Below, one piece after another: positions 7,459 through 49,463 of a DNA stretch of 64,000 nucleotides. The DNA is from Desulfobacterales bacterium. GTDB lineage: Bacteria; Desulfobacterota; Desulfobacteria; Desulfobacterales; SpSt-501. The translations under genes and the position numbers were made by a program. The stretch is from assembly GCA_037481615.1 (NCBI GenBank), contig JBBFLI010000007.1; one strand, given 5' to 3'. Under the pieces are notes generated by a model. That model did not search any database. It had not been told where the DNA came from and saw nothing but the letters and a program-made list of their open reading frames with translations. Numbering within the stretch: the first letter of the stretch is position 1; each line of letters begins with the position of its first letter.

Positions 7459-7474
7459 AGAGAGAAGCCTCCGG

Positions 7475-31012: not shown

Positions 31013-31018
31013 GGCAAT

Positions 31019-33022
31019 ATGGAAGTTGGGAATATTGTTGAATATATCGATCGCGAGCGCATCCTCTGCGCCGTGATCCTCGAAATACGCAACCAGCGCC
31101 TCAAGCTCCTGACCGAGAACAACCGCGAGGTGAGCCTCTCGGCGGGGAGACTCTTGCGTCTGGACACCACCCGGCTCGACCCCGGGATGGGGCGTTTCCG
31201 CCTGGTCGACCGCCTGCGCGAGGTGGCCGAGAAGAGAAACGCGCTCGTTTCCGCGGTCACGATCCGCGATCTCTGGGAGGTGCTCCACCCCGAAAACGAT
31301 TGGATCGACCTCGAAACCCTCACGGCCTTCTGCTTCCCGGGCGAGGCGAACGGGGATCACCAGTCCGCCGTGATGCGCGCGGTCTTCAACGACCGGCTCT
31401 ATTTCCGCTTTCACCCCGGCCGATTTTTCCCCAACCCGCCCGATCAGGTCGAGCGGCTCTTCGCCCGTCGGGAAGCCGAGGCCCGGCGGGCGCGGTTGAT
31501 CGAGCAGGGCGGGGCCTGGCTGCGGCAGGCGCTCTCCCGCACCGGCCCCCCCCCGGCGGAGGCGGCGGGCGAGGTGCCCGGGGAGTGCCTGCGCCTCATC
31601 CGCGACTTCTTCCTCTTCGGCCGGGAGGCCGCCGACCACGATACGGCGCGGGCGCTTCTCGAACGGGCCGGCGTGGACCCCGCGGGGGATCTCTTCCCCC
31701 TCTGCGTGCGGCTGGGGCTCTTTTCCGAGGACGAGAACCTCGACCTCCATCGCCTGCGCGTGCCGGTCGAGTTCCCGCAGGAGGCGCTCGAGGCGGCGCA
31801 GCGGCTCGTCGCCCCCCGGCCTTCGGCCCCCGCGTCCGGCCTCGCCGGGCGGGTTGACCTCACCGGCCTCGAGCTCTTCACGATCGACGGCCAGGCGACG
31901 CTCGATTTCGACGACGCTCTCAGCCTCGAGACCCTCCCCGACGGGCTGCGGCTGGGCGTGCACATCGTGGACGTCGCCCACTTCGTGCGTCGGGACGACC
32001 CCCTCGACCGGGAGGCCCGCCGGCGCGGCAGTTCGATCTATCTCCCCGACCAGCGGATCCCCATGCTGCCCGCGCCGCTCGCCGAGGGCTTGTGCAGCCT
32101 GCGGGCGGGGGAGGTGCGCCCGGCGATCACGACCTTCATCGATCTCGCCTCCGACCTGAGCGTGCGCGGCTACCGCATCCTGCCGAGCTGGGTGCGGGTG
32201 AAGGAACAGCGGACCTATTTCGACGTGAACCTGCTGGCCGACCAGGACCCGAAGCTCCTGCGGCTGCGCAGCATCGCGCGCGCCTTCCGCGAGGCGCGCC
32301 TGGCGGCCGGCGCCGTGCACATCGCCGTGCCCGAGGTGAACGTCTGGATCGCCGAAAACGGCGAGGTTCACGTGAGCCGCCTGAACCGCGAGAGCCCGGC
32401 GCGCATGCTGGTGGCCGAGATCATGATCCTCGCCAACTGGCTTGCGGCGCGCTGCCTTGCCGAAAACGGGCTGCCCGCCGTGTTCCGCGCGCAGCCCGAG
32501 CCGCGCGAGCGGCTCTACGCGGGCGAGGGGGGGAGCCTCTTCCAGCAGTGGATGCAGCGCCGGCTGCTCAACCGCTTCGTCCTGAGCCCGGCCCCCGGGA
32601 AGCACTCGGGGCTGGGGCTTTCGGCCTACGTGACGGCGACCTCCCCCATCCGCAAGTACTACGACCTCGTGACCCAGCGGCAGATCCGGGCCGTGCTCGG
32701 CCTCGAGGCGCCATACGGCGCCGCGGAAATCGAGGCCCTCCTCGAGGACCTCGCCCTCCCGATGAGCCGGGTCGCCCAGCTGCAGGCCGCCCGCCATCGC
32801 TACTGGCTTCTGCGGTTCCTTGAGCGCCGGGTGGGGGAGAAGGAGGAGGCGATCGTCCTGCAGCGGCGCCGCAACGGCTACCAGATCCTGCTCACCGAGT
32901 ACATGCTCGAGTGCGATCTGCCCGACACGGGCGGGCCGGAGCTCTTGCCCGAGGACCTGATCCAGGTGACCCTGCAGGCGGTGAACGCCCGCAAGGACCA
33001 CATCGCTCTCACCATCGGCTGA
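31019..33022 (+). CDS. RNase II/R-family 3'-5' exoribonuclease
   Basis: Start at ATG 31019 inside a 1296-aa track ORF, giving 667 aa. RNB motif TIDGQATLDFDDALSLE. C-terminal S1-like segment. Confidence 0.85.
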   Translation: MEVGNIVEYIDRERILCAVILEIRNQRLKLLTENNREVSLSAGRLLRLDTTRLDPGMGRFRLVDRLREVAEKRNALVSAVTIRDLWEVLHPENDWIDLETLTAFCFPGEANGDHQSAVMRAVFNDRLYFRFHPGRFFPNPPDQVERLFARREAEARRARLIEQGGAWLRQALSRTGPPPAEAAGEVPGECLRLIRDFFLFGREAADHDTARALLERAGVDPAGDLFPLCVRLGLFSEDENLDLHRLRVPVEFPQEALEAAQRLVAPRPSAPASGLAGRVDLTGLELFTIDGQATLDFDDALSLETLPDGLRLGVHIVDVAHFVRRDDPLDREARRRGSSIYLPDQRIPMLPAPLAEGLCSLRAGEVRPAITTFIDLASDLSVRGYRILPSWVRVKEQRTYFDVNLLADQDPKLLRLRSIARAFREARLAAGAVHIAVPEVNVWIAENGEVHVSRLNRESPARMLVAEIMILANWLAARCLAENGLPAVFRAQPEPRERLYAGEGGSLFQQWMQRRLLNRFVLSPAPGKHSGLGLSAYVTATSPIRKYYDLVTQRQIRAVLGLEAPYGAAEIEALLEDLALPMSRVAQLQAARHRYWLLRFLERRVGEKEEAIVLQRRRNGYQILLTEYMLECDLPDTGGPELLPEDLIQVTLQAVNARKDHIALTIG

Positions 33023-33097
33023 CCGGCCCCCGGAAGATCGCGCCCCGCGGCCCCGGCGCAGGGGGCCTTCCGGAGCGGCGCCCGCTCGGAGTTCCGT

Positions 33098-34317: not shown

Positions 34318-35736
34318 TCAGGCGAAGAGCCGGGCGATCTCGTCCACCTCGAAGCGCGGCCAGGGGACCGGGCGGCCGTGCCGCATTCCCCGAACCCCGA
34401 CGCCCTTCCGCAGCACCTCGCCGATGCGGGTGATCTCGATCCCGGCCTCGCGGATCGTCCGCTCGAGCCGCGGCGCGTGCCGCGGCCGGCAGGCGATGAG
34501 GAGGCTCCCCGAGCCGATCAGCCCGAGGGGGTCGAGCCCGAGGAGGCGGCAGAGGCGGCGCGTTACGGGCCGGACCGGGATGCGCGCGAGATCGACCTCG
34601 AGGGCGCAAACGCCCGCCGCGGCGAGTTCCTCGACCGCCATGGCCACCCCCCCCTCGGTCACATCGTGCATGGCGCTCACCCCGGGGCAGGCGGCGGCCG
34701 CGCGCGCCTCGGGCAGGATGGGGACGTGCGCGAGGAAGCCCCGGGCGCGGGCGAGCGCCGGCGCGGACAACCCGAGCCGCCTCAACCGCGCCGCGAACTC
34801 GCGGGCGAGGATCGCGGTGCCCTCGATCCCCGCCGCCTTGGTCATGAAGAGGACGTCCCCGGCGCGCAGGCGGCGCTTGTCGATCAGCTTCCGCCGCCGC
34901 ACGCGCCCGGCCATCATGCCGCAGACCACGGGGCGAAGCACCGCGTCGGTGATCTCGGTGTGCCCCCCGCAGAGGGTGATCCCCCAGCGGCGGCAGAAGG
35001 AGGAGAGGTCGGCCAGGACCCCGCGGATGTCGGCCGGGGTCGTCCCCGGCGGGAAGAGGAGGGTGGCGAGCAACCAGCGCGGATCGGCGCCGGCGGTGGC
35101 GATGTCGTTGGCGTTCACCAGGACGGCGTACTGCCCGATCGCGTCGGTGGCGAAGGTGATCGGGTCCGACTTGAGGATCAGGACCTCATCGCGCGCCACA
35201 TCCACGGCGGCGATGTCTTCGCCGACCCCGGGGTTGATCAGGAGGTCCGGGTCCTCGAAGCGGAACTCTTGCAGGAATTCCGCGAGCCAAGCGTTCGGGA
35301 GCTTCCCCGCGGCGAGCGGAAGCTCCCCGCGGATGCGGTGCAGGAGCGCCCGGGGGTCACCTGCGGCCTCCCCCCGGGGATCCAGGCGCACGGTGCGCCA
35401 CCCGGCGCGCTTTGCGGCCTCGAGAAAGGAAGGATCCGCCGAGACGGCGATCCGCCCGCCGGAGGCGGCCCTTGCCTTTCGCGCCGCGGCCCTGAGCGCC
35501 GCCGCGAGTTTGCCGGCCGTCGGCGGCAGCAGGAGAAAGGCCGCCTTCTTCACCGCCCGGGGGCCGAGAAGGGTTCCGAGCCTGCGGCGCGCCTCGGGCG
35601 CCGCCAGCCGGCTGGCGATGCCGACCCGCAGCCCGTGATCCCCCAGCAGGGCGGCCAGGCCCGGCGAGGGCGGAGCGGTGCGGAGAGGGGGAATCCCCTC
35701 GGCGTGGAACCACACGGTGTCGGAGGCGCTGCTCAT
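34318..35736 (-). CDS. PurM-superfamily (AIR synthase-related/HypE-like) protein with ~170-aa N-terminal extension
   Basis: PurM-like N-domain GVGEDIAAVDV...LVNANDIATAGA and C-domain CGGHTEIT...HDVTEGGV. ATG 35736 is chosen; ATG 35775 is an alternative. The extension has no PurM features. Confidence 0.7.
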   Translation of the reverse strand: MSSASDTVWFHAEGIPPLRTAPPSPGLAALLGDHGLRVGIASRLAAPEARRRLGTLLGPRAVKKAAFLLLPPTAGKLAAALRAAARKARAASGGRIAVSADPSFLEAAKRAGWRTVRLDPRGEAAGDPRALLHRIRGELPLAAGKLPNAWLAEFLQEFRFEDPDLLINPGVGEDIAAVDVARDEVLILKSDPITFATDAIGQYAVLVNANDIATAGADPRWLLATLLFPPGTTPADIRGVLADLSSFCRRWGITLCGGHTEITDAVLRPVVCGMMAGRVRRRKLIDKRRLRAGDVLFMTKAAGIEGTAILAREFAARLRRLGLSAPALARARGFLAHVPILPEARAAAACPGVSAMHDVTEGGVAMAVEELAAAGVCALEVDLARIPVRPVTRRLCRLLGLDPLGLIGSGSLLIACRPRHAPRLERTIREAGIEITRIGEVLRKGVGVRGMRHGRPVPWPRFEVDEIARLFA

Positions 35737-35824
35737 GGCCGGCGACCCCTGCTGAACGCGGCCTCGCACTTTCATCGCCCGGCCACCCTGCCACCGATCC
35801 GGGCCCGATGACAAGCGGAAAGTC

Positions 35825-36691
35825 TCACCGTTTCCGCGCGAGCGGCCAGAAGCGGGCAAGTCCGGCGAGGCTCTCCCAGAGCTCGTCCCGGCGGTGGATC
35901 TCGAGGGTCACGAGCGGCGGCTCGGGGTGCATGGCGAAGAGCCTCTCGAGGGTCGGCCCGAAATCGATCCCCCCCCGCCCGACGGGCAAGTGTTCGTCCC
36001 GCTCCCCGCCGTTGTCGTGGAGGTGGAGCTCGGCCACAAAGGGGCCGAGGCGCTCCACCCAGTTCAGCAGCGGCTCCTCCCCGAAGGCGACGGCGTGGCC
36101 GCAGTCGAGGCACAAGCCCACGTCCCTTTCCGCCAAACGCGCGAAGAGCTCGGCCATTTCGCCCGGCCCGCGTTCGAAGACGTTTTCGAGAACCAGGCGG
36201 CCGCCGAGGGGCGAGAGCCGTGCCGCGATCTCCCCCCAGAAACGAAGGGAGTGCTCGAGCCACAAGGGCTGGAAATAGCCGTAGCGCCGCCAGTCGTAGC
36301 CCGCATGGGCGACGACCGTGACCGGGCGGAAGAGCGGGACGAGGGCGAGGAGCTGCTCGTAGCGGCGCGCGGCGACCGCGCGCACGGCCGGGTCGCTCGA
36401 GCCGGCGGAGAGATCGACGAAGGGGCCGTGGAAGCTCACGCGCAACCCCGCCTCCCGGATCGCGCCCGCCACGCGGGCGAAAGAGGCCGGCGCGGTCCCG
36501 TCGAGGGTCTCGGCATCGAAGGCGATCTCGGGGTTCAAGGCGTGCTCGAGGAAGTGTGCGAGATCCCCCGCGGCGAGACGGCGGAAGCTCGTGTGCACCT
36601 GGACCGCGGCCTTGAGCTCCGGCCAGGAAATCCCGCCGGGCGTTGACCGCCCGCCCGTCCCGGGCGTAGAGTGATCGTCACGCCGCGCCAT
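35825..36691 (-). CDS. Sugar-phosphate isomerase/epimerase (xylose-isomerase-like TIM barrel)
   Basis: 288 aa. Pattern VQVHTSF...FHGPF...LVLENV...CLDCGHA...HLHDN is typical of the AP_endonuc_2 TIM barrel. The start is uncertain. Confidence 0.7.
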   Translation of the reverse strand: MARRDDHSTPGTGGRSTPGGISWPELKAAVQVHTSFRRLAAGDLAHFLEHALNPEIAFDAETLDGTAPASFARVAGAIREAGLRVSFHGPFVDLSAGSSDPAVRAVAARRYEQLLALVPLFRPVTVVAHAGYDWRRYGYFQPLWLEHSLRFWGEIAARLSPLGGRLVLENVFERGPGEMAELFARLAERDVGLCLDCGHAVAFGEEPLLNWVERLGPFVAELHLHDNGGERDEHLPVGRGGIDFGPTLERLFAMHPEPPLVTLEIHRRDELWESLAGLARFWPLARKR

Positions 36692-36719
36692 GAAACCTCG
36701 CTCGCGGAGGTCCGCCGCG

Positions 36720-37562
36720 ATGTCCGCCCTCGACCGCCTGGAGCCTTTTCTGCTCGCCTGCGTCGACGCCCTCTTCGACCGCATCCCGCGCCGGCCGCCC
36801 CCGGAAGACCTGCTGCGCCACTGCCGCATCGTCGCCCATCGCGGCGCGCACGACGGCCGCGGGCTCCGGGAAAACACGATCGCCGCCTTCGACGCGGCGG
36901 CCGCCTGCGGCGCCTGGGGTATCGAGTGCGACCTGCGCTGGACGGCGGACGGCGTCCCCGTCGTGGCCCACGATCCCGACCTCGCCCGCGTGTGGGGGCT
37001 GCCGGAGAGGATCCGGGATCTCCCCTTCGCCGCGCTGCGAAGCCGTGTTCCGGAAATCCCCGCCCTCGCGGAGGTGGTCGCGCGTTTCGGCGGCAGAATC
37101 CATCTGCTGCTCGAGATCAAGGAGGAGCCCTGGCCCGACCCCGCCGGGCGCAACCGGCGGCTCGCCGCCATCTTCGCGGGGCTCGAGCCCCGGGCGGATT
37201 ACCATCTCCTCGCCCTCGATCCGCGGCTCTTCGAGCGCATCACCTTCGCCCCGCCCGGCTGTTTCCTGCCCGTGGCCCAGGGGCTGCCGCGCGCGGAAAG
37301 CCGCGTCGCGCTCGAGCGGGGCTTCGCCGGGGTCGCCGCCCATTACCTGCTGCTTTCCCGCGAAACGATCGCGCGCCATCACCGCGCGGGGCAGTCGGTG
37401 GGGACGGGCTACGCCCGCTCCCCGGCCGTTTTCTTCCGCGAAGCCGGCCGCGGCGTGGACTGGGTCTTCACCAATCACGCGGCCTCGCTTCTCGGCGCGC
37501 TCGCCGGCCGGCTCCCCCCCGCCCCGCCGCCACGGGGCGGGTCGGGCTCGCGCACGAAGTAG
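36720..37562 (+). CDS. Glycerophosphodiester phosphodiesterase family protein
   Basis: ATG 36720 lies 9 nt after GGAGG and is preferred over ATG 36690. GDPD motifs VAHRGAHDGRGLRENT and IECDLRWTADGVPVVAHD. Confidence 0.8.
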   Translation: MSALDRLEPFLLACVDALFDRIPRRPPPEDLLRHCRIVAHRGAHDGRGLRENTIAAFDAAAACGAWGIECDLRWTADGVPVVAHDPDLARVWGLPERIRDLPFAALRSRVPEIPALAEVVARFGGRIHLLLEIKEEPWPDPAGRNRRLAAIFAGLEPRADYHLLALDPRLFERITFAPPGCFLPVAQGLPRAESRVALERGFAGVAAHYLLLSRETIARHHRAGQSVGTGYARSPAVFFREAGRGVDWVFTNHAASLLGALAGRLPPAPPPRGGSGSRTK

Positions 37563-38842
37563 AGGAGCCCCGCCCCGGCGGCGAAGAGAAGCAGGATGGA
37601 GGCGATGCTCAGGCGGGCGGCGAGCCTCCCCGCCTGCCGCATCTCTTCCCCCGAGGGCGAATCGGGGAGCAGCATCCGGCTGGCCGCCAGCCCCACCGCC
37701 CCCATGAGGGCGGGCCCCAGGATGGCCGCGAATTTGCCGATCATGTTGTAGAAGCCGAAGAACTCGGCCTCCCGGCCCTCCGGGACGAGCCGGGCGTAGA
37801 GGGAGCGGCTGAGCGCCTGCACCCCGCCCTGCACGAGCCCGATCAGGACGGCGAGCGCATAGAATTCCCGGCGGTCTTCCAGAAACGCCCCCCAGAGCGT
37901 CGCCCCCATGTAAGCCCCGAGCCCCAGGAAAATCGCCCGCCGCGGGCCCAGGCGCGTGCCGAGCCGCCCGAAGGCGAGCGCCGCCGGGAAGCCGACGAAC
38001 TGCACGACGAGCAGGGCGGTGATCAGGTCGGTCGCCGCAAAGCCGAGCGAGAGCCCGTAATCGACGGCCATGCGGATGATCGTGTCGACGCCGTCGATGT
38101 AGCACCAGTAGGCGGCGAGGAAGAGGAGCACCGGGCGGTGGCCGCGGATGTTGCGGAAGGTCGCCGCCAGGCGCCGGAAGCCCGCAGCGGCCGTCGCCCG
38201 GGCCCCGCGGGAAAGGCGGGACCCCCGCGGCTCCGGGACCCAGCGCAGCAGAAACCCCGTGAACCCCCCCCACCAGAGGGCCACGGTGAGAAAGGAGAGC
38301 CGCACCGCGGCTTCCGGTCCGGCGAGGCCGAAGGCGGCGGGGTAGAGCGTCATAACCGCGTTCGCCAGGAACAGCAGGCCCCCGCCGAGGTAGCCCAGGG
38401 CGAAGCCGAGGCTCGAGACGGCATCCAGGCGCCCCGGCGGGGCGACGGCGGGCAGCAGCGCATCGTAGAAGACGTTCGCCCCGGCGAAGCCGAGGATGCC
38501 CGCCGCGTAGGCGAAGGCCGCCTCCGGCCACCCCCCCTCGCCGATGAAATAGAGCGCCGCGGTCGAGGCGACGCCGAGGTAGGCGAAGGCGGCCAGAAAG
38601 CGCTTGCGCGCGGTGGAGACGTCCGCCGCCGCCCCGAGCACCGGGGCGAGCGCGGCCGTGAGCGCGCCGGCGGCGGCGTTGGTGAAGCCGAGCATGGCCG
38701 TGCTCGCGGCGGCGTCCACGCCCGCGGCCCAGTATTGCTTGAAGAAGACGGGGAAGAAGCCGGCCATGACCGTCGTGGCGAAGGCCGAGTTCGCCCAGTC
38801 GTAGAGCGCCCAACCCCATACCGCCCGGCGTTCGGGGCTCAT
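37475..38842 (-). CDS. MFS transporter, UMF1 (Atg22-like) family
   Basis: Start at ATG 38842 (MSPERRAVWGWALYDWANSAF, the typical UMF1 N-terminus) inside a 2124-aa track ORF. 455 aa, about 12 TM segments. ATGA overlap with the upstream gene. Confidence 0.8.
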   Translation of the reverse strand: MSPERRAVWGWALYDWANSAFATTVMAGFFPVFFKQYWAAGVDAAASTAMLGFTNAAAGALTAALAPVLGAAADVSTARKRFLAAFAYLGVASTAALYFIGEGGWPEAAFAYAAGILGFAGANVFYDALLPAVAPPGRLDAVSSLGFALGYLGGGLLFLANAVMTLYPAAFGLAGPEAAVRLSFLTVALWWGGFTGFLLRWVPEPRGSRLSRGARATAAAGFRRLAATFRNIRGHRPVLLFLAAYWCYIDGVDTIIRMAVDYGLSLGFAATDLITALLVVQFVGFPAALAFGRLGTRLGPRRAIFLGLGAYMGATLWGAFLEDRREFYALAVLIGLVQGGVQALSRSLYARLVPEGREAEFFGFYNMIGKFAAILGPALMGAVGLAASRMLLPDSPSGEEMRQAGRLAARLSIASILLLFAAGAGLLYFVREPDPPRGGGAGGSRPASAPRSEAA

Positions 38843-39441
38843 TTCCCCACCGGCGCGAGGTAGAGCGGCTCCTCGCCTTGGGCCAGCCCGGCCAGCTCCC
38901 GGATTTCCCGGTCGCGGAAGGCGCCGATCAGCACACTCTGCAGATCGAGGGCCGCGGCCTGCAGGCAGAGGTTCTGGGCCGCATGCCCGGCCTCGAGGAT
39001 CGCGTAGCGCACGCCGCGTTCCCCGTAGCGGGCGGTCGTGCGGCCGAAGACCGCGGTGAGCAGAAAGACGGCGGGCGCCCGCGCGACCGGCCGCTGGTCG
39101 AGCGCCGCCCGGCAGAAGGCGGGGCGGAGGTCCTCGGCCGAGCGCCGCGCGAGCGCATGCGCGGCGGGCTCGTAGCGATAGAGGCCCGTCGGGAGCCCGA
39201 CGGCGTCTCCGACGGCGGCGTAGATCTCGAGAGGGTAGAGCGCGCCGGCCGACGGGGCCGTGCGGTATCCGTTCGGGTGGGTCACCCCCTGGGCCGCCCA
39301 CAGGAGCTGGGCGATCTCCTCGGCCGTGAGCGGCTCGCGGCCGAAGGTGCGCCGGGAGCGGCGCGCGAGCAGGATCTCTTCGAGCGAAAAGACCCCGCTC
39401 AGGCGCGGCGGGGGGAGGCGGATGCGGTCGGCGGCGGCCAT
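38839..39441 (-). CDS. SagB-type dehydrogenase domain / nitroreductase-family flavoprotein
   Basis: 200 aa. RRSRRTF...LLWAAQGVT...RTAPSAGALYPLEIY...GLYRYEP follows the SagB/ThcOx-type pattern. Confidence 0.8.
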   Translation of the reverse strand: MAAADRIRLPPPRLSGVFSLEEILLARRSRRTFGREPLTAEEIAQLLWAAQGVTHPNGYRTAPSAGALYPLEIYAAVGDAVGLPTGLYRYEPAAHALARRSAEDLRPAFCRAALDQRPVARAPAVFLLTAVFGRTTARYGERGVRYAILEAGHAAQNLCLQAAALDLQSVLIGAFRDREIRELAGLAQGEEPLYLAPVGK

Positions 39442-39468
39442 GGCGGCGATCCCTGCGCCCGCGGCGGG

Positions 39469-42400
39469 TCAGTGCGCCCGCGCGGCCTGCATGCGCCGGT
39501 GGAGGCGTTCCGCCCGCAGGAGGAAGGCCTCGAGCTTGGCGTGGATGAGCTGCGGGAAGGGCGAGCCGTCGGTTTCGATCGCCAGGAAGGGCAGTTCCTC
39601 GATGCCCTCGAGCACCGGGCCCAGGCTGCCGTCGAAGGCGAGGCGGTCGCGGGCGGTCATCGCCTCGCTGAGGATCGCCTCGGAGACGCGGTTCGGCATG
39701 CAGCCGAAGGGTCCGATCGCGATCACGCCGCAGCTGTGGCGCACGATTTCCCGCAGCGCCCCGCCGACGGTGAGCACGGCCTCGCCGGTCAGGTCGGGCG
39801 AGAGGTGCGGCCGGGCGTGTTCGATCACCGAGGCGACATCCGGCATCTCGCCGCGCAGCAGACCCGAGGCGGCGAGGATCGCGCGGATTTGCTTCTCGTA
39901 GCGGCTCTGGAAGAAGTTGCGCAGCTTGAGCTTGAGCTTCTGCAGCGCGCCCATCGGGTCCTGGTTGAAGCCGTGGTCGATGAGGTAGTTGCAGTAGTGG
40001 ACCCACTCGGCGACGGGCGCGCACAGGGCGGCGAAACCCTTCTCGGCGAGGCGCTCGGTCAGGTACTGGCGCGAGAGGGCGTCGCGGCGCACGAAGATCT
40101 CGCCGGTCAGGCTGATCGTGGGCACGCGGGCGGGGTCGGTGCGCAGCGGGATCGCACGGAAGCGCTGGGCGGCGGCGCGGAGCGCCGCGCAGAGGACCTG
40201 GAAATCGGCCCGCTCCATCGCGCTCCGGATGTCCGCCCACTCGGCCTCGAAGACGGCCATCGCCGCCTGCGGGTCGGCGGCGGCCGCGAGCAGCATGGAG
40301 CGGATGTCCTCCAGGGTGTCGGAGACGATCACCGCCCACCAGGCGTGCCGCTCGAAGTCCTTGTCCATGCCGACGTAGGAGTTGTCCGAAGAGAGCGCGA
40401 GCACGGCCACGTCGGGGATTTCCAGCCGCCGCACGAGATCCTCCATGAAGATCGCATACTGCCCGAAGCGGCAGGGACCGGAGCCGGTCGGCATGAAGTA
40501 GACCAAGACCTCGTCGGGGCGCTTGCCGTTGCGGATGTAGCCGAGCAGCGTGCCGGTCGTGAGGATGAGCGGCAGGCACTCCTTGCAGGAGGTGTTGGCG
40601 CGGCCGAGCTTGAGCACGGCTTCGTCGTTTTCGCGGGCGGCCCGGGCGTGGAGCCCGTAGCCCTTCAACACGGCGGCGAAGGCTTCGGTCCCGAGCCGGC
40701 CCATGGAGGGGATGAGCACGGTGACGCGCGGGTCGGTCATGGGGAGGGTCTCGCCCCTCGAGGTGACGACCCGGGCCCCCGACTCCTCGAGGAGGATGCG
40801 CGCGGGGCGGAACTCCGTGCGGCGCGGGGCGATGTGTTTCCGGGAGACGAGCATCCGGTAGGCGCGCACGATGTCGAGGAAGGCCTCGATGCGCGTCTCC
40901 AGGCCGGCGTCCGCCGTGTGGCTGTCGAGCTCGAGGGTGAGCGAGGGCTTGCGGCCGAGGATGTCCCGGAAGTAGGTGATGACGAAGGAGTCGGGCCCGC
41001 AGGAGAAATTCGTGATGTAGGCGCCGAAGAGCTGCGGGTGCCGCTCGGTCAGCCGCGCCGCCTTGAGGATGAGCTTGCCCATCCCCCAGTACATGTGCCG
41101 TTTGGCCCGCTCGGAGCCGAGATCGAGCGCCTCGAGCGGGAGCACGGCGATTCCGCGCGAGGCGAACTTGTGGGGGATGCCCTTGTTCGCCTCGGAGGCG
41201 TAGGCGCTGTAGGGTCGGCCGAAGAGCACCACGGCGAAGCGCCCGGGGTCGGCGGCGAGCTCCGCGAGCAGCCGGTCGCCCGCCGCCCGCAGATCCCGGA
41301 GGAAAGCCTTCTGGGCCTCGAGCGCGGTCGCAAAGGCCCTTTTCGCCCGGCGGGCGTCGAAGCCCATCGCGCGGGCCGCCTCCCGGAGCGGCTTCTCGGC
41401 GCTTTCGACCCCGCGGGAGAGGTCGAGCAGCGGCCGGAGCAGGCGCACGCCCCGGCGCTTGAGCTCCGCGAGTTCGCCGCGGAAGGCGGCCTGCAGGTAG
41501 TAGGTCTCGCCCTGGACGAGCGGGCAGACCTGGGACTGGAGGCTCGTCTGGGGGTCCGTGTTGGGCACGGCCTTGAAATGGGGCAGGAAGACGAACTCGG
41601 CGGGCTCCCCGGCCGCGAGCAGCCGGTGGCAGAACCCGTGGGCGAGCTCGGCCGGGTAGCAGAAGGGGGCGCCGCGGCGGTCCATGCCTTCCTGGGTGGG
41701 GGCCTCGGGCACGACGATGTCGAGGCCCAGCTCGGCGAAGAAGCGCGCGTAGAGGGGATAGAAGGTGTGCACGAGAAAGCTGCGGTTGATCGCCACCCGC
41801 GGCCGGCCGCGGGACTCCCCGGGGGAAAGCGGCGGCACCCCGTGGGTCTCGAAGAGCAGCCGCTCGCGGAGGCTCACGAGATCGAGCGCCTCGACGTCCA
41901 CGCTCACGCGGCGGCGCAGGTTCTCGTAGCGGTTGCAGGCCCCCCCGAAGGGGAACTTTCTCCCCTCGACCCCGATCACCCGGATCGCGCAGCGCCGGTC
42001 GCAGCGTTCGCGGCCGCCGCGGCAGGTGAAGCCGCCGTGGTAGGCCACCTCGCGGGAGGCGAGCGCCTCGAGATCGAAGCGGCCCTCGGCGATCTCCCCG
42101 CTGCGGATCCGCCGGTCGACCTCGAGCGCGACGCCGAAGGCGCCCATCAGCCCCGGTTCGGGGGGGACGACGATCGGCTTGCCGACGAGCCCGGCCATGG
42201 CGAGCGGCACCGCCTCGTTGTAGCAGACCCCGCCCTGCATGAAGACCTTTTCGCCGACCGGCCGGTTGCCCTTCACCCGGTTCGTGTAGTTCATGCAGAT
42301 CGAGTAGACCAGTCCGGCCACGATGTCCTCGCGGGGGAGCCCCTCGTGGATCGCGTTCTTGATGTCGGAGGCGATGAAGGCCGCGCACTGGTCGTTGAAA

Positions 42401-43821
42401 TTGGGCGGCCGCCGGCCCTGCAGCGCGATGCCGGCGATCTCCTCCATCGGCACCCCGAGGGTCTCCTTGGCCGACTCCTCGAGGAAGGAGCCGGTCCCGG
42501 CCGAGCAGGCCTCGTTCATCGCGTAATCGGAGGGCACGCCGTTCGTGATGTAGGTGTACTTCGCGTCCTGGCCGCCGATCTCGAAGATCGTATCGACCCC
42601 GGGGTCGAAGTAGACCGCGGCCGTCGCGTGCGCGATGATCTCGTTGATCACCCCGTCGGTGAGGGCGTGGAGCCCCGCGATCTGGCGGCCCGAGCCCGTG
42701 ACCCCCAGCCCCGCGATCGTGATCTCCCGCGGGTCGACCGCGGCGCGCACCTGCTCGAGAACCGCCCGGTAACACAGGCGGGAGGCGCCGACGGGGTCGC
42801 CGTTGGTCCGGCGGTAGTCGGAGGCGAGCAGCGCACGGTCCGCGCGGCGCAGCAGCACCGCCTTGGTCGTGGTCGACCCGACATCCAGGCCGAGCAGGCA
42901 GACGTCGCCCGGGCGGATCGTGCCGCGCGCGATCGACTTGAACTCCACCTGCGGGCGGAACTCGGCGAGCGGCGGCAGCCGGTCGAAGGAGGCCGCTCCC
43001 TCGACGAAGAGCTTTTCCATCCCGGGGAAGGGGCGGGTTTCGTTTTCGAGCGCCCAGAGGGCGGTCCCCAGGGCCTCGAAGTAGGGCGCCTCCTCGGGGA
43101 CCACGAGGTCGGGGATTTCCCGGCGCAGGTAGGCGATCATCATCCGGTTTTGCGCCGTGCCCCCGGTGACCATGACGGCCCGCCGCTCCACCTTCTTCAG
43201 GAGCTCGAGGATCTTGTTCGCCATCATGCGGCAGAGCCCGGCCGTCACCTCGGCCTTGGGGATGCCCTTGTTGGTCGCGTGGGTGCAGTCGGACTTGCAG
43301 AAGACCGAACAACGGCCGGAGACGGGGTAGGGCCGCTCGACGGCGGCGAACCGCGCGGCCTCCTCGAGGGAGACGTTCATGCGGCGCAGCTGCTGCAGGA
43401 AGAACTCCCCCGTGCCCGAGGCGCATTTGTTGCCGGTGATGACGTTTCCGATGCGGCCGTGGCGGTCGAGGACGTAGACCATGAACGTCTCGCCCCCCGC
43501 GGAGACGACGGCGGGGCAGTCGACGCCTTCGGGCTTGACGAAGGGGTAGGCCGCCTCGACGGCCTCGGGCTCGGGGATGGAGGTGAGGTGGACGAAGGTG
43601 CGGAATTTCCGCCCGGTGGCGGCGATGCGCTCGGCCGACGCCGGCTCGATCGCGGCCAGCGCCTTCTGCAGGGCCGCGCGCGGGTTTCCCTCGTGGGCCA
43701 GGAGAAAGACCCGGGTGATGCGGGGCTTCGCCCCCGGCCGCGCGGCGTCCGTTTCCAGACGGACGGCCGAGATGGTCGACGCCCCCAGGCAGATACCGAT
43801 CGAAGAGGATGCGCGTTTCAT
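39469..43821 (-). CDS. BCR/HAD radical-enzyme family fusion: 2x BcrAD/BadFG (HgdC-like) ATPase + DUF2229/2-hydroxyacyl-CoA-dehydratase-like halves (PlsA/PlsR-type architecture)
   Basis: 1450 aa from ATG 43821. ATPase module 1: IGICLGASTISAV, GNKCASGTGEF, SGRCSVFC. ATPase module 2: LGLDVGSTTTKAV, NEACSAGTGSF, NDQCAAFIASD. These are followed by Cys-rich CRGGRERCDRRC and two dehydratase-like halves (CYPAELAHG...; TSCKECLPL...GSGPCRFGQY). Confidence 0.9.
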   Translation of the reverse strand: MKRASSSIGICLGASTISAVRLETDAARPGAKPRITRVFLLAHEGNPRAALQKALAAIEPASAERIAATGRKFRTFVHLTSIPEPEAVEAAYPFVKPEGVDCPAVVSAGGETFMVYVLDRHGRIGNVITGNKCASGTGEFFLQQLRRMNVSLEEAARFAAVERPYPVSGRCSVFCKSDCTHATNKGIPKAEVTAGLCRMMANKILELLKKVERRAVMVTGGTAQNRMMIAYLRREIPDLVVPEEAPYFEALGTALWALENETRPFPGMEKLFVEGAASFDRLPPLAEFRPQVEFKSIARGTIRPGDVCLLGLDVGSTTTKAVLLRRADRALLASDYRRTNGDPVGASRLCYRAVLEQVRAAVDPREITIAGLGVTGSGRQIAGLHALTDGVINEIIAHATAAVYFDPGVDTIFEIGGQDAKYTYITNGVPSDYAMNEACSAGTGSFLEESAKETLGVPMEEIAGIALQGRRPPNFNDQCAAFIASDIKNAIHEGLPREDIVAGLVYSICMNYTNRVKGNRPVGEKVFMQGGVCYNEAVPLAMAGLVGKPIVVPPEPGLMGAFGVALEVDRRIRSGEIAEGRFDLEALASREVAYHGGFTCRGGRERCDRRCAIRVIGVEGRKFPFGGACNRYENLRRRVSVDVEALDLVSLRERLLFETHGVPPLSPGESRGRPRVAINRSFLVHTFYPLYARFFAELGLDIVVPEAPTQEGMDRRGAPFCYPAELAHGFCHRLLAAGEPAEFVFLPHFKAVPNTDPQTSLQSQVCPLVQGETYYLQAAFRGELAELKRRGVRLLRPLLDLSRGVESAEKPLREAARAMGFDARRAKRAFATALEAQKAFLRDLRAAGDRLLAELAADPGRFAVVLFGRPYSAYASEANKGIPHKFASRGIAVLPLEALDLGSERAKRHMYWGMGKLILKAARLTERHPQLFGAYITNFSCGPDSFVITYFRDILGRKPSLTLELDSHTADAGLETRIEAFLDIVRAYRMLVSRKHIAPRRTEFRPARILLEESGARVVTSRGETLPMTDPRVTVLIPSMGRLGTEAFAAVLKGYGLHARAARENDEAVLKLGRANTSCKECLPLILTTGTLLGYIRNGKRPDEVLVYFMPTGSGPCRFGQYAIFMEDLVRRLEIPDVAVLALSSDNSYVGMDKDFERHAWWAVIVSDTLEDIRSMLLAAAADPQAAMAVFEAEWADIRSAMERADFQVLCAALRAAAQRFRAIPLRTDPARVPTISLTGEIFVRRDALSRQYLTERLAEKGFAALCAPVAEWVHYCNYLIDHGFNQDPMGALQKLKLKLRNFFQSRYEKQIRAILAASGLLRGEMPDVASVIEHARPHLSPDLTGEAVLTVGGALREIVRHSCGVIAIGPFGCMPNRVSEAILSEAMTARDRLAFDGSLGPVLEGIEELPFLAIETDGSPFPQLIHAKLEAFLLRAERLHRRMQAARAH

Positions 43822-43860
43822 GGCTGACCCAGGCAACCGCTCGAATCACCGAAACAAACT

Positions 43861-43889
43861 CTCATAGTGCAAAAGAGATGCGCTGGCAA
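43861..43889 (-). promoter_or_regulatory. Putative sigma70-type promoter of the PlsA/PlsR-like operon
   Basis: Minus strand: TTGCCA (43889-43884), 17-nt spacer, TATGAG (43866-43861). Confidence 0.4.
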
Positions 43890-43972
43890 GGGGGACGGGA
43901 GGATCGATTGCGATTTCAAGGTGTTTGCTTCATGCCGCGTCAGAGCCGGCCGCGGGCGCGGCAGGCCCCCCC

Positions 43973-45460
43973 TCAACGGGCTTGCGCCGGCCGCGGAGGC
44001 CTCTCGGCCCCCGCCTCCGTCGGTCGCAGGTGCCCGGTGAACAGAGGGGAGGCCGCATAGGCGAGCATGAAGAGGAAGAGCACGTAGCCGTAGAAGGGGG
44101 TGAAAATCGAGATCAGCAGGGCGAAGGTCGCCCGGCCGAACCAGGGGTGGCGGCTCATGAAACGGCCGGCGTGGAGGTAGCGCACGGGGTAGAGGTTCAT
44201 CAGCAGGGCCGCCCCGACGAAAGTGAAGGCGCTGACCCAGGCCCAGAACACGGCGGCGGCCGAGACGTCCCCCGCGGCCGGGCCGGCGAGCACCATCGGC
44301 CCGGCGACGAGGAGCGCCCCGGCCGGGGTCGGCATGCCCTTGAAGAAGCCGGGGACGGGGTTTTTGTCGAGGGTGAAGTAGACGAGCCGCAGGATCCCGG
44401 CTGCGGCGTAGACGACCCCGATCGCGGCGGCGGGCAAGGCCTGGACGGAGGCGGCCGGGCTGCGGTCGAGGAGGATGACGAGCATCCAGGCCGGGACGAT
44501 GCAGAAGCTCACCGCGTCGGCGATGTCGTCGAGGAGAGCGCCCGTCGTCACCTTGCGCGGCCGCGGCTCTTCGCCGGGGAGCGGCTCGTTCAGGCCGAGC
44601 CGCCGGGCGAGCGCGCCGTCCAGCTTGTCGAAGAAGGCGGCCCCGATCAGGAAGAGCGAGGCTTCCCGGAAACGGTCGTGGTGGGCGAAGAGAAGGGCGA
44701 GCAGGCCCATGCTCGCGTTCATCAGGGTGAGCGCGTTCGGGAAGAAAGAGAGGATCTTGCGCCGCAGCCGCTCGTCGCCCAGGCAGAGGTCGTCCAGGGC
44801 GAGGTTGCCGTAGCGGCGGATCGTCGCCGCGATGGAGCCGAAATTGATGACGAGGAAGAGGATCTCGATGAAGAAGAGGGTCCGCAGCGGCGCCTCGCCG
44901 AGCTGGGCGATCCAGCGGTAGGGCGTCGTGGTGGGGCCTTCGGGGATGTAGAAGGCGTAGGCGTAGAGGAGCGCCCCGACCGGCGCGGCGACCGCCGTGC
45001 GCAGGCGGGTGAACTCGCGGTACTCGGGCTCCTGCTCGTAACGAAGCGCGACGCCGCGCATGAAGTGCGCGAAGTTGTCGCGCACGAGCACGGTGATCGC
45101 CAGAAACAGGACGAGCACCGCGTGCAGAAGCTCGGTGCGCGTGGGGTCCTCGGCCCTGTGCAGCCGCCACATGCAGCCGACGGCGACGAGCGGGAAGATG
45201 ATCGCGTAGATCAGCTTGTCGAGGATGCGGTCGGCGAGCTGGGCCATCTGGGGGTGGGGGTAGTAACGGGCGGCGAACCAGCCGTCGACCAGGTCGAAGG
45301 TCATCGCGGTGAAGAGAAAGACCACCCCCACGAGATACAAGGCGGGGCTTGCGGTCCACATGACCGCCACGGCGCAGAGCATGCCCCCGAAGACGAGCGG
45401 CAGCCGCCCGAAGACGAGAAGCGCCGTGATGCGCTGGGAGAATCGCACGCTGCGGGTCAT
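43973..45460 (-). CDS. Tandem CDP-alcohol phosphatidyltransferase fusion (two CDP-OH_P_transf domains)
   Basis: Start moved to ATG 45460 (MTRSVRFS), giving 495 aa multi-TM. Domain 1 motif is DLVDGWFAAR...ADRILDKL. Domain 2 motif is DKLDGALARR-(22 aa)-GALLDDIADA. Confidence 0.8.
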   Translation of the reverse strand: MTRSVRFSQRITALLVFGRLPLVFGGMLCAVAVMWTASPALYLVGVVFLFTAMTFDLVDGWFAARYYPHPQMAQLADRILDKLIYAIIFPLVAVGCMWRLHRAEDPTRTELLHAVLVLFLAITVLVRDNFAHFMRGVALRYEQEPEYREFTRLRTAVAAPVGALLYAYAFYIPEGPTTTPYRWIAQLGEAPLRTLFFIEILFLVINFGSIAATIRRYGNLALDDLCLGDERLRRKILSFFPNALTLMNASMGLLALLFAHHDRFREASLFLIGAAFFDKLDGALARRLGLNEPLPGEEPRPRKVTTGALLDDIADAVSFCIVPAWMLVILLDRSPAASVQALPAAAIGVVYAAAGILRLVYFTLDKNPVPGFFKGMPTPAGALLVAGPMVLAGPAAGDVSAAAVFWAWVSAFTFVGAALLMNLYPVRYLHAGRFMSRHPWFGRATFALLISIFTPFYGYVLFLFMLAYAASPLFTGHLRPTEAGAERPPRPAQAR

Positions 45461-45523
45461 CCCCGTTCGTTGCCCTGAGGGGCGGGCGGTGGGTGGGTTG
45501 CGCAACTGCCCGGAACTTTTTCT

Positions 45524-47232: not shown

Positions 47233-48225
47233 TCAGGCCCAGCGGATGAGGGCGCTCCCCCAGGTCAACCCGCCGCCGAAGACCGGCAGGCAGACGAGAT
47301 CCCCCGGCCGGATGCTTCCGTCGCGCACCGCCTCGTCGAGGGAGATGGCGCAGGAGGCCGAGGAGATGTTCCCGTACTTGTGGAGCGTGACGTAGAATCG
47401 CTCGAAGGGGATCTTCAGGGTGTCGGCGATGCTGCGGAACATGCGCAGGTTCGCCTGGTGCGGGATGAACCAGGCGATGTCCTCGAGACGGATGCCGTTT
47501 GCCGCCACGCATTCCTTGATCGCATCGACGAATCCGCGGACGGCGATGCGGAAGCTCAGGTTCGCCTCGATCATCTTGAGGGTGTGCAGCTTGCGCTCGA
47601 CGCTTTCGTGGCTGATGGGCGTGGTGCGCGAACCCCCGCCGGGGAGGAGCAGGTCCTTGCCGCGGGCGCCGTCGGTGTGCAGGTGGGTGGAGACGAGCTC
47701 GGGGCCCTCTTCGCCGCGGGTGAGCAGGGCCGCCCCCGCGCCGTCGCCCCAGAGGATGCAGGTCGAACGGTCGGTGTAGTCGAGGGTGCGGCTCATCACC
47801 TCGGCGGCCGCCACGAGCACGCGCCGGCAGGCGCCGGTCTTGAGGTACTGCTCGGCGACGTTCAGGGCGAAGACGAAGCCCGAGCAGGCCGCGGTCACGT
47901 CGAAGCTGACCGCCTGGGGGGCGTCGAGCTTGGCCTGGAGCCAGTTGGCGGCCGAGGGGCAGCAGGTGTCCGGGGTGATCGTGGCGACGACGATCAGATC
48001 GAGGTCGCGCGCGCTCCAGCCCGCGGCCGCGAGCGCCCGCCGGGAGGCCTCGAAGGCGAGGTCCGAGGTGGCGACCTCGGGGTCGGCGATCCGGCGCTCG
48101 CCCACCCCCGTGCGGGTGCGGATCCACTCGTCGCTCGTGTCGAGGCCCATGTTCTGGAGGTCCTGGTTGGTCAGCCGCTTCGGGGGGACATAGGAGCCCG
48201 TCCCGGCGATCCGCACGCGTTCCAT
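47233..48225 (-). CDS. fabH: 3-oxoacyl-ACP synthase III (KAS III)
   Basis: 330 aa. Cys-His-Asn triad blocks AACSGFVFAL, IPHQANLRM and YGNISSAS. Confidence 0.92.
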   Translation of the reverse strand: MERVRIAGTGSYVPPKRLTNQDLQNMGLDTSDEWIRTRTGVGERRIADPEVATSDLAFEASRRALAAAGWSARDLDLIVVATITPDTCCPSAANWLQAKLDAPQAVSFDVTAACSGFVFALNVAEQYLKTGACRRVLVAAAEVMSRTLDYTDRSTCILWGDGAGAALLTRGEEGPELVSTHLHTDGARGKDLLLPGGGSRTTPISHESVERKLHTLKMIEANLSFRIAVRGFVDAIKECVAANGIRLEDIAWFIPHQANLRMFRSIADTLKIPFERFYVTLHKYGNISSASCAISLDEAVRDGSIRPGDLVCLPVFGGGLTWGSALIRWA

Positions 48226-48261
48226 CGCTGTCGCTCTCCTTTTCCGCTTCCGCCGTCGATA

Positions 48262-49422
48262 TCAGAGGTACTGGTCCACCAGTTCGGTCACGAACCGCTC
48301 GACGCCCCCATCCCCCTCGCGGGAGCGCAGCTCGTCGATCAGGTTGCGGATCTTGCGCGCGGTGGCGGGGTCGTGCTCGAGGTCGGAAAGCGAGCGGAAG
48401 GCCCCGCCGCGCCGGCCCACGCGGAAGACGAGCCGCTCCTCCTCCGGCAGGGCCTGGTAGTCCCGGATCACCCCGAGCATGCGCTCCCGGTCCTCGGGGA
48501 GCTTTCCCGAAACCTCCTCGAGGAGGTTCATGATGTGGTCGCTGGCGATCGTGCTCGTGATCCCCTCGAGGTGTTCGAGAAAGACGCGGATCTCCTCGAC
48601 GACCTCGTCGTCGCTCGGCAGCTCGAATTCGCCCGCGGCGAGCTTCGCGTGGAGCGGGGCGCGCCGCGGCACCCGGAGGCTCCGCAGGCGGATGAAGTGG
48701 GGGTTGATGCGGTTGAGGACGCGCGCGGTCTCGACGGCGTGCTCGCGCCACAGGGCCCGGCCGCCCAAGCCCGGCATGACGTACTCGGAGACCTCGATGC
48801 CGGCCTCGATCAGCTTCCTTCCCGCTTCGACGTGCCGGTCGGCCGAGACCCCCTTCTTCATGAGGCGGAGCACCGCATCCGAGCCGCTTTCGAGGCCGAG
48901 ATGCACGCGGTCGAGGCCCGCCTCGCGCAGGCGGCGCAGGTCCTCGAGCCGCCGGGCGGCGACGGTGCGCGAGCGCGCGTAGGTGGTCACCCGGCGGATT
49001 TCGGGGAAGGTGCGGCGCAGAAAGGAAAGCAGCCCGGCCAGCTCCTCCGGGGGCAGAATCAGGTTGTCCGCGTCCTGCAGAAAACACGCTCCGGACCCGT
49101 AGTAGAGCCAGGCGACGACACTGCGGGCGCTCGCGTGGAGGGGGGGGGCCTGCAGCAGGGCCCCGGCGACCGCGTCGTTCACCGCCCCGCCGCAGCCCAT
49201 GCGCCAGGAGGTCTCGATCACGTGGTCGGCGATGCGGCGTGCGGCGAGGATGTCCTCGCGGATCTCCTCCGCCGAGCGGCGCGAGAATTTTCGGCCCTTG
49301 TAGACCGGGCAGAATTCGCAGCGGTTCCAGGGGCAGTTGCGCGTGAAGCGCAAGAGCAGGCTCGCCGCCTCGTTCGGCGGACGGATCGGCCCCTGCTCGA
49401 ATTGCATGGCGTTCCGGCTCAT
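48262..49422 (-). CDS. Radical SAM protein (unassigned subfamily, no SPASM/B12 domain seen)
   Basis: ATG 49422 is chosen; ATG 49407 is an alternative. N-terminus GPIRPPNEAASLLLRFTRNCPWNRCEFCPVY, where the cluster motif reads C-x4-C-x2-C. There are no further Cys clusters. Confidence 0.8.
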   Translation of the reverse strand: MSRNAMQFEQGPIRPPNEAASLLLRFTRNCPWNRCEFCPVYKGRKFSRRSAEEIREDILAARRIADHVIETSWRMGCGGAVNDAVAGALLQAPPLHASARSVVAWLYYGSGACFLQDADNLILPPEELAGLLSFLRRTFPEIRRVTTYARSRTVAARRLEDLRRLREAGLDRVHLGLESGSDAVLRLMKKGVSADRHVEAGRKLIEAGIEVSEYVMPGLGGRALWREHAVETARVLNRINPHFIRLRSLRVPRRAPLHAKLAAGEFELPSDDEVVEEIRVFLEHLEGITSTIASDHIMNLLEEVSGKLPEDRERMLGVIRDYQALPEEERLVFRVGRRGGAFRSLSDLEHDPATARKIRNLIDELRSREGDGGVERFVTELVDQYL

Positions 49423-49431
49423 GGGAAAAGG

Positions 49432-49458: not shown

Positions 49459-49463
49459 GCGGT

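Follow-up and report, generated by a model that had tools for sequence, protein, structure and literature searches.

A Ger/PlsAR-type candidate for anaerobic ether-lipid synthesis, with a SagB-type flavoprotein and a UMF1-family transporter, in a Desulfobacterales lipid-biogenesis island

The stretch of DNA considered here, referred to as the window, comprises 64,000 nucleotides of contig JBBFLI010000007.1 from a Desulfobacterales bacterium (GenBank assembly GCA_037481615.1), and its main feature is a minus-strand gene for a candidate anaerobic ether-lipid synthase of the Ger/PlsAR type, accompanied by genes for a flavoprotein and a major facilitator superfamily (MFS) transporter. In the order of the minus strand, a context gene for a fused tandem CDP-alcohol phosphatidyltransferase of ~496 aa (43973..45463; two stretches matched by Pfam CDP-OH_P_transf) is separated by a 137-nt AT-richer gap from the large gene, which spans 39469..43821 from its ATG, has an alternative TTG start 15 nt upstream (43836) and encodes a protein of 1450 aa and 158.9 kDa. 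A stand-alone SagB-type nitroreductase-fold flavoprotein of 200 aa without a signal peptide (38839..39441) starts 27 nt past the stop codon of the large gene, and its own stop codon is overlapped (ATGA) by the start of an ATG22/UMF1-family MFS transporter of 455 aa (37475..38842). Convergent with the latter, on the plus strand, lies a context gene for a cytosolic GDPD-family phosphodiesterase, recognized by Pfam (36690..37562). A preliminary description made from the letters alone had put forward this layout, including the SagB-type gene 27 nt after the large one, its overlap with a UMF1 transporter gene, the tandem phosphatidyltransferase upstream and the convergent GDPD gene downstream, and all of it is borne out by the spacing, the overlap and the profile matches. 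With a G+C content of ~70%, the window abounds in spurious long open reading frames (ORFs), from which true genes were distinguished by third-position GC (GC3), which is 0.95 for the large gene; the overlapping long ORFs on both strands of 37475-43849 (2124 and 1649 aa) were rejected as high-GC artefacts.

From a structural point of view, the large protein consists of two ATPase ("activase") modules followed by dehydratase-like sequence, all encoded on the minus strand. Pfam matches it with BcrAD_BadFG (PF01869) twice, at 199 bits, and with DUF2229 (PF09989) at 146 bits, that is, with the two activation domains and one reduction domain ("BBD") that characterize Ger and PlsAR. Module 1 (~aa 6-262; 43036..43806) carries the motifs GNKCASGTGEF/SGRCSVFC with the ligand-type cysteines C133 and C171, and module 2 (~aa 310-566, or 315-571 when numbered from the TTG; 42124..42894) carries NEACSAGTGSF/NDQCAAFIASD with C439 and C479. 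In alignments to 1hux (HgdC) and 4eht (HadI), both pairs fall on Cys127 and Cys166 of HgdC, which, from the HgdC structure, we take to be the ligands of the bridging [4Fe-4S] cluster. Among 79 homologues the conservation of these positions is 0.97 for C133, 0.99 for C171 and 1.0 for C439 and C479, and about 17 further cysteines are kept in at least 95% of them. A repeat search returned chance high-GC matches only, besides a trace of the ATPase-module duplication. Between the modules and DUF2229, outside any Pfam model, lies a cysteine cluster, C600-x6-C607-x3-C611...C629 (41935..42024), whose four members are conserved in 100% of the 79 homologues; it is probably an extra Fe-S site and may relay electrons. 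The DUF2229 "reduction" domain (41128..41799; conserved C721 and C766) would form the first dehydratase-like half, and the C-terminal region (39472..41127) comprises C941 and the end of that half, followed by a second dehydratase-like half with conserved C1079, C1082, C1117, C1364 and C1374. The HGD-D (PF06050) similarity of this C-terminal part is weak and sub-threshold (E = 0.007; 16 bits, cut-off 28), and the region has two copies of the "LxLExD" motif found at the C terminus of YjiM-type subunits, one near aa 959, where with C941 it closes the first half, and one near aa 1410. Thus, of the architecture read in the preliminary description, the two HgdC/BcrAD-type modules with their cluster cysteine pairs are confirmed by Pfam and by the HgdC/HadI alignments, and the two DUF2229/dehydratase-like halves are upheld by the DUF2229 match and the duplicated LxLExD motif, with the second half showing only the weak HGD-D similarity.

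Homologues of the large protein number more than 7000, thousands of them full-length. Its full-length identity is 60-92% to hundreds of Desulfobacterota proteins, with 60-75% for those of Desulfobacterales, Syntrophales, Desulfonema magnum and Desulfobulbus alkaliphilus, and 60-69% when the named proteins of Desulfobacterales, Desulfonema and Desulfobulbus are taken by themselves; the closest genome, a metagenome-assembled genome (MAG) labelled Desulfatibacillum sp., encodes a 90% identical protein in identical synteny. Ger has been described as a "modified PlsA" whose two activation domains and one reduction domain are kept in all confirmed alkyl-ether producers, and PlsAR and Ger are the sole characterized proteins with this fused BB-D architecture (PMC13159169). 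The two-activase (BB) form correlates with alkyl-ether producers and one-activase forms with plasmalogens, and there is as yet no diagnostic sequence signature for Ger versus PlsA (PMC13274423). When expressed alone in anaerobic E. coli, Ger of Thermotoga maritima or Desulfatibacillum alkenivorans gives 1-O-alkyl glycerols (PMC13159169), together with small amounts of diethers (PMC11150832); D. alkenivorans encodes an active Ger of 159 kDa and an inactive Ger2 of 153 kDa (PMC11150832). The proposal that the large protein belongs to the PlsA/PlsR-Ger family and stands in a lipid-biogenesis neighbourhood therefore agrees with the BB-D arrangement described in the literature. A comparison with YjiL/YjiM, which the preliminary description had recommended, was made as well: E. 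coli YjiL is 25-28% identical to each ATPase module and YjiM is barely detectable (E = 0.008), and the large protein is therefore not of the YjiL/YjiM type. Nor does the locus offer a separate activator and HgdA/HgdB-type (PF06050) subunit, the chain being fused and devoid of a full PF06050 match. Because of its architecture, its cofactor ligands, its host and its context, the assignment of the large protein, hereafter called Ger, as a Ger/PlsAR-type anaerobic ether-lipid synthase candidate in a Desulfobacterales lipid-biogenesis island is well supported.

The flavoprotein passes both Pfam Nitroreductase and the NCBIfam SagB domain model TIGR03605 (127.1 bits, cut-off 78.4), and its family keeps an RRSxR motif of the type that binds flavin mononucleotide (FMN) as well as RTAPSAGALYP. 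SagB-type azoline dehydrogenases possess a conserved catalytic Lys-Tyr motif, and a K/R-Y dipeptide of the family aligns with the KY of CyaGox, being R138-Y139 in the window copy and K-Y in most homologues. Neither a YcaO cyclodehydratase nor a precursor peptide was found among the window genes between 27 and 55 kb or in related loci, and the flavoprotein is therefore not considered a dehydrogenase of thiazole/oxazole-modified microcins (TOMMs). Likewise, no nitroreductase domain fused to Ger was seen among the homologues listed, as judged by Pfam domains and ORF lengths (a Rosetta-stone check). A profile scan of metagenome contigs, from which the best 80 flavoprotein homologues (46-67% identity) were taken, placed Ger next to five of them; the contexts of the others were diverse, and no recurrent partner outside Ger loci was found among these 80. 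Approximately 76% of the family have an N-terminal hydrophobic segment, in many cases lipobox-like or twin-arginine-like, which implies that most members would be extracytoplasmic, membrane-anchored flavoproteins. A lipobox cysteine or a twin-arginine-like signal is typical of loci L083-L161 (e.g., L122, L107, L116 and L156; L numbers denote related loci) and of L041. The signal-less form found in the window is carried by 15 of 23 Ger-linked flavoproteins and by six of 67 others (Fisher test, 3e-7, or 0.005 with linked clades collapsed).

The transporter matches Pfam ATG22 (PF11700; 203 bits) and MFS_1 (82 bits), and JGI labels its homologues "UMF1 family MFS transporter"; a PDB search with it gave no match. 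Its 3' end overlaps that of the GDPD gene by 88 nt in the window (37475-37562) and by 19-88 nt in relatives (L001, 16309-16396; L162, 9320-9338; L163, 9292-9347), and the convergent pair is kept in L002, L003, L010, L028, L082, L095, L162, L163, L165-L167 and L169. In a transporter-centred survey of eight MFS homologues on long contigs (62-67% identity), five loci (L162, L163, L166, L167 and L169) contain a block in which MurJ on the opposite strand is followed by the CDP-alcohol phosphatidyltransferase, Ger, in some cases the flavoprotein, the transporter and, convergently, GDPD. As for the remaining three, L165 has the MFS|GDPD pair only, without Ger, in L164 the transporter is followed by a Zn-dependent phospholipase C, and L168 shows neither arrangement. 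The association of the transporter with phospholipid head-group enzymes is therefore no less faithful than its association with Ger. L167 is peculiar in that a 716-aa DUF2229 fragment (5861-8011), preceded by two unannotated opposite-strand ORFs, stands in the place of Ger and no flavoprotein is present, which may reflect either a decayed Ger or frameshifts in a long-read assembly.

Upstream of Ger, about 40 nt 5' of the start codon, lies a promoter-like or operator element, CTTGCCA-N12-TGCACTAT(GAG), on the minus strand at 43861..43890. It contains a -35-like TTGCCA (43889-43884), a 17-nt spacer and a -10-like TATGAG (43866-43861). The same arrangement, TTGCCA-N10-14-TGCACTAT, occurs in seven of 170 loci, always in the intergenic region between the CDP-alcohol phosphatidyltransferase and Ger (L001/L002, L003, L004, L082, L162 and L169); L001 and L002 are two fetches of one contig, hence six related genomes carry it. 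In alignments, the intergenic sequence flanking the element diverges. There is good comparative evidence that the conserved element represents a real regulatory element, be it a promoter or an operator, and its conserved intergenic place supports a transcription unit that would start at the large gene. Thus, the TTGCCA-N17-TATGAG promoter ascribed to this gene in the preliminary description is present and conserved, but a strict σ70 scan does not call it, its -10 hexamer lacking the T at position 6. A σ54 reading was rejected, since no -24 GG is found at the spacing required, and an Rfam scan of 33-54 kb detected no RNA family.

Conservation of the neighbourhood was assessed by tblastn of the window proteins against the best 80 species-representative genome loci (51-90% Ger identity). 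These scans keep the best 80 loci, so the statistics describe Desulfobacterota-type Ger, with Thermotogota and Bacillota lying outside the sample; genes in related loci were called by a simple longest-ORF and GC3 heuristic. When a neighbour is defined as a gene within 6 kb of Ger and only loci whose downstream sequence extends over 2.5 kb or more are counted (64 in all), the flavoprotein is present in 14/64, the transporter in 16/64 and both in 7/64, counts that are not phylogenetically independent. If metagenome and MFS-derived loci are included besides the genome loci, the full trio is found in 14 loci, namely the window, L002, L003, L009, L010, L011, L039, L059, L082, L095, L162, L163, L166 and L169, and a 495-497-aa CDP-alcohol phosphatidyltransferase fusion lies upstream of Ger in all those with sufficient upstream sequence. 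In a rough neighbour-joining (NJ) tree of Ger, in which 13 of these 14 were placed, the trio occupies three clades, whose sister clades have Ger and the transporter only. Linkage to the flavoprotein only is seen in three or four further clades, where the latter is convergent and adjacent (L041, L042, L080), on the same strand (L127) or about 3 kb away (L020, L024, L058, L064). Throughout the window's own clade (window, L001, L162, L163, L166, L169) the gap between Ger and the flavoprotein is 7-29 nt. For both the flavoprotein and the transporter, the linkage to Ger is recurrent and non-random, which speaks for a functional tie. As a separate observation, another Ger clade (L020, L024, L058, L064, L013) shows a different recurrent neighbourhood at 0.3-3.7 kb downstream of Ger, with genes of the peptidase-U32 and histidine-phosphatase families, followed in four of the five loci by a longer SagB-like flavoprotein (244-260 aa) on the opposite strand.

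The explanation that best accommodates these data, with a probability of roughly 0.6, is that in this uncultured bacterium the locus encodes a Ger/PlsAR-type anaerobic ether-lipid synthase, with the flavoprotein and the transporter as lineage-restricted accessories. Judging from the enzyme family, the two HgdC-like ATPase modules would share one bridging [4Fe-4S] cluster and, at the expense of ATP, would drive electrons of low potential to the Fe-S centres of the dehydratase-like halves fused to them. There, a membrane glycerophospholipid would have the carbonyl of its sn-1 acyl ester reduced, and the resulting hemiacetal-type intermediate would be dehydrated to the ether. The product would probably be a saturated 1-O-alkyl ether, as with the two-activase enzymes of Thermotoga and Desulfatibacillum. 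Ger would be transcribed from its own conserved promoter-like element, together with the cytosolic SagB-type FMN protein and, in this genome, the UMF1 MFS transporter, within a conserved membrane-lipid island that includes a YhdP-like protein, FabH, MurJ, the tandem CDP-alcohol phosphatidyltransferase and GDPD. The flavoprotein would most plausibly be a two-electron redox helper, with either the ether product or an intermediate as its substrate, or else would protect the enzyme, and the transporter and GDPD unit would probably handle head-group, glycerophosphodiester or lyso-(ether)lipid turnover.

Both partners are regarded as accessory at most, and not as core parts of the enzyme, because Ger alone makes alkyl ethers in E. 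coli and because these neighbours are also frequently absent. Three roles advanced in the preliminary description are weakened. Nitroreductase-fold enzymes are two-electron hydride carriers, and activases need one-electron, low-potential donors, so that a flavoprotein feeding electrons to Ger, as had been suggested, fits poorly with the chemistry and is unlikely. The suggestion that it interconverts vinyl and alkyl ethers is weakened, since Ger alone suffices (PMC13159169, PMC11150832) and a separate vinyl-ether reductase is not required: E. coli expressing PlsA/PlsR accumulates plasmalogens (PMC12838417), and their persistence means that the host supplies no vinyl-ether reductase, so that Ger must perform the extra reduction itself. 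Finally, the idea that the transporter moves a lipid intermediate of Ger loses ground, as the transporter follows GDPD without Ger in L165 and adjoins phospholipase C in L164, both of which point to head-group or lyso-lipid turnover rather than to a Ger intermediate.

Several observations weigh against the explanation preferred here. At 41 of the 64 Ger loci (64%) neither neighbour lies within 6 kb, so the conservation check recommended in the preliminary description gave a divided answer, with the trio recurring in three clades and most Ger loci lacking both genes. Relatives do not keep the ATGA overlap and have 22-277 nt between flavoprotein and transporter. Seen from the flavoprotein, linkage to Ger amounts to 4/52 homologues if 300 nt or more of flanking sequence is required on both sides, or 3/19 if the requirement is 2 kb or more (8-16%), and the Ger-linked flavoproteins of L041, L042, L080 and L127 carry N-terminal hydrophobic or Tat-like signals and therefore fit poorly with a common cytosolic partner role. 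In two protein searches, with the window protein and a Desulfatibacillaceae orthologue as queries, the validated Ger (AGL49404, SHJ90043), Ger2 and PlsA (Q8XL48, Q835P9) were not among the top 120 matches, nor did they appear among the 80 genome loci; we infer orthology to an active Ger by likening the large protein to published descriptions. The product could be a plasmalogen, Ger and PlsA being indistinguishable by sequence (PMC13274423), and an alkyl ether is favoured by the BB heuristic and host taxonomy only. As for the transporter, a literature search for the function of any bacterial UMF1 transporter returned nothing relevant.

Among the alternatives, the one that survives best, although it is somewhat unlikely, holds that the flavoprotein and the transporter are unrelated to Ger and reflect inherited synteny in a membrane-biogenesis island, the transporter serving GDPD only (salvage of glycerophosphodiesters or head groups) and the SagB-like protein being a general redox or detoxification enzyme. 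It draws on the unrelated, non-recurrent contexts of most flavoprotein homologues, on the lipoprotein or secretion signals of 76% of them, on the transporter being paired with GDPD without Ger in L165 and placed beside phospholipase C in L164, on the 64% of Ger loci that have neither gene and on the activity of Ger alone in E. coli (PMC13159169). However, the flavoprotein is found close to Ger in at least five clades and in three arrangements (same strand, convergent and ~3 kb away), a recurrence that we estimate, with no computed statistic, to be far above what chance placement of a gene this small (0.6 kb) in a several-Mb genome would give; moreover, the spacing of 7-29 nt is kept among orthologues only ~64-66% identical, and the Ger-linked copies are specifically those of the signal-less form. 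The opposite possibility, a tentative one for which the chances are modest, is that the signal-less flavoprotein is a dedicated redox partner of Ger, with UMF1 and GDPD devoted to lyso-ether-lipid or head-group turnover. In that case the second two-electron step might be performed or adjusted by the flavoprotein, which might otherwise make etherification at sn-2 possible or convert alkyl and alkenyl ethers into each other.

It is rather improbable that the large protein is instead a plasmalogen synthase of the PlsA/PlsR type that makes vinyl ethers. The two kinds of enzyme share family and domain set, a single-gene fused PlsA makes plasmalogens in facultative anaerobes (PMC12838417) and sequence cannot separate Ger from PlsA (PMC13274423), but alkyl-only production correlates with the presence of two activases and with a host from the Thermodesulfobacteriota (PMC13274423, PMC8788747), and the size of the protein matches that of the active D. 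alkenivorans Ger (PMC11150832).

More doubtful is the view that the flavoprotein acts as an obligate, product-determining partner, so that the operon would constitute a two-enzyme ether-lipid pathway in which the flavoprotein reduces an alk-1-enyl intermediate to the alkyl ether, desaturates in the reverse direction or enables sn-2 etherification. SagB-type enzymes dehydrogenate a C-C bond adjoining a heteroatom, which speaks for such a role, as do the tight translational coupling, the recurrent linkage and the alignment of the K/R-Y motif with the KY of CyaGox. In addition, the literature leaves open the origin of the second reduction and of sn-2 ethers, and Ger2 is inactive alone, possibly for want of a cofactor (PMC11150832, PMC8788747). 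Against this, the monoethers and diethers that E. coli forms with Ger alone are saturated (PMC13159169, PMC11150832), and plasmalogens are retained in E. coli with PlsA/PlsR (PMC12838417), so that the host supplies no vinyl-ether reductase. The flavoprotein is also absent near 78% of the related Ger genes, an unactivated enol ether should, on chemical grounds, be a poor hydride acceptor, and the window copy carries Arg and not the Lys of the motif. Least credible of all is a non-lipid member of the benzoyl-CoA reductase/2-hydroxyacyl-CoA dehydratase superfamily with a CoA thioester or some other small molecule as its substrate, since the label "acyl-CoA dehydratase activase" given to homologues by NCBI and JGI and the 25-28% identity of the ATPase modules to E. 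coli YjiL are outweighed by a fused BB-D chain unlike separate activator and HgdAB or YjiM subunits, by the barely detectable similarity to YjiM, by lipid genes as neighbours with no CoA-ligase, CoA-transferase or fermentation genes close by, and by an architecture characterized only in PlsAR and Ger (PMC13159169).

Other features of the surroundings deserve mention. Both domains of the tandem CDP-alcohol phosphatidyltransferase have intact DxxDGxxAR...D-x3-D motifs; the first has Ala instead of the usual Gly ahead of D-x3-D, and the second resembles PssA/archaetidylserine synthase (73 bits, under the cut-off). Upstream of MurJ (47233-53617, minus strand) lie genes for FabH, a radical-SAM protein and a 1271-aa YhdP/AsmA-like protein. 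A function of the radical-SAM gene (48262-49713) as a membrane-spanning-lipid synthase is not claimed, given its weak and generic class-B-like radical-SAM matches, which include a "lipid biosynthesis B12-binding/radical SAM" model; in relatives, a B12-binding radical-SAM gene is located just 3' of GDPD instead (L163, 10159-12000; L166, 15303-16967; L167, 11926-12981). Past GDPD, at 34318-36640 on the minus strand, are an AP_endonuc_2 protein similar to CbiR, a phosphodiesterase of cobamide remodelling (66 bits, cut-off 105), and a 529-aa protein that is related to AIR synthases (HypE/ThiL/SelD-like) and extended at its N terminus; both genes are kept in L001, and homologues are found downstream in L162 and L169 for the former and in L163 for the latter. 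Farther away, the overlapping 1311- and 1324-aa ORFs on opposite strands of 29087-33097 are high-GC artefacts as well, the genes there being instead an RNase II/R-type gene (plus) and an ABC transporter gene (minus) that diverge from ~31 kb.

Alkyl-ether lipids of bacteria matter for the "lipid divide" and for biomarkers in sediments, and Ger/PlsA is the only enzyme known for the anaerobic route to ether lipids. In the literature searched, no paper brings a nitroreductase or SagB protein together with Ger or PlsA, and none reports such an operon, in keeping with the earlier supposition; the kind of enzyme is known, and its lineage-restricted operon context and upstream element appear undescribed. 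Together with its upstream element, the conserved block (Ger, flavoprotein, transporter, phosphodiesterase) offers concrete co-expression candidates for gaps in the field. Should the flavoprotein prove to be a dedicated partner of Ger, and UMF1 and GDPD to serve in lyso-ether-lipid or head-group turnover, the anaerobic formation of ether lipids in bacteria would have its first described accessory factors, and these might represent the "missing cofactor" suggested for the inactive Ger2; should the partners be irrelevant, the locus would simply hold another Ger homologue in the MAG of a sulfate reducer.

When compared with known systems, the large protein has in common with HgdC/HgdAB, HadI/HadBC and YjiL/YjiM the HgdC-type ATPase fold, the cluster ligands in both modules and the LxLExD motifs, but it differs from them in being one fused 1450-aa chain with a tandem activator and DUF2229, and in its lipid-gene rather than CoA-ester context. 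The flavoprotein resembles SagB, McbC, CyaGox/ThcOx and BmdC, as well as 3eo7, 3hj9, 3hoi and 8cqs, in its nitroreductase fold, its TIGR03605 match, its RRSxR and RTAPSAGALYP motifs and a K/R-Y dipeptide aligned with the KY of CyaGox; unlike the SagB-type azoline dehydrogenases, however, it has only 200 aa, without a docking domain or a recognition domain for ribosomally synthesized and post-translationally modified peptides (RiPPs), and Arg replaces the Lys of its motif. The pairing of an MFS transporter with a GDPD phosphodiesterase, and in one relative with a phospholipase C, recalls by analogy GlpT/GlpQ, yeast Git1 and LplT/Aas, except that the transporter here belongs to the ATG22/UMF1 family and that the MFS and GDPD genes are convergent and not co-transcribed. 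With PlsA/PlsR of Clostridium perfringens and the fused PlsA of Enterococcus faecalis, Ger shares the superfamily, O2 sensitivity and the proposed ATP-driven Fe-S reduction of the ester followed by dehydration; in contrast, the Clostridium form is split over two genes, the product of these enzymes is a vinyl ether, and two activases are present here. The closest parallel is Ger itself (D. alkenivorans SHJ90043; T. maritima Tmari_0479), with which the large protein agrees, as likened by description, in its two BcrAD_BadFG domains and DUF2229, with weak, sub-threshold similarity to the small HGD-D-like pieces, in size (158.9 kDa against 159 kDa for the D. alkenivorans enzyme), in an anaerobic host of the Thermodesulfobacteriota type and in the expected conversion of an sn-1 ester to an alkyl ether. 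Published Ger, however, has been treated as a stand-alone gene, whereas here it forms part of a CDP-alcohol phosphatidyltransferase/Ger/flavoprotein/UMF1 MFS|GDPD block with a conserved upstream element.

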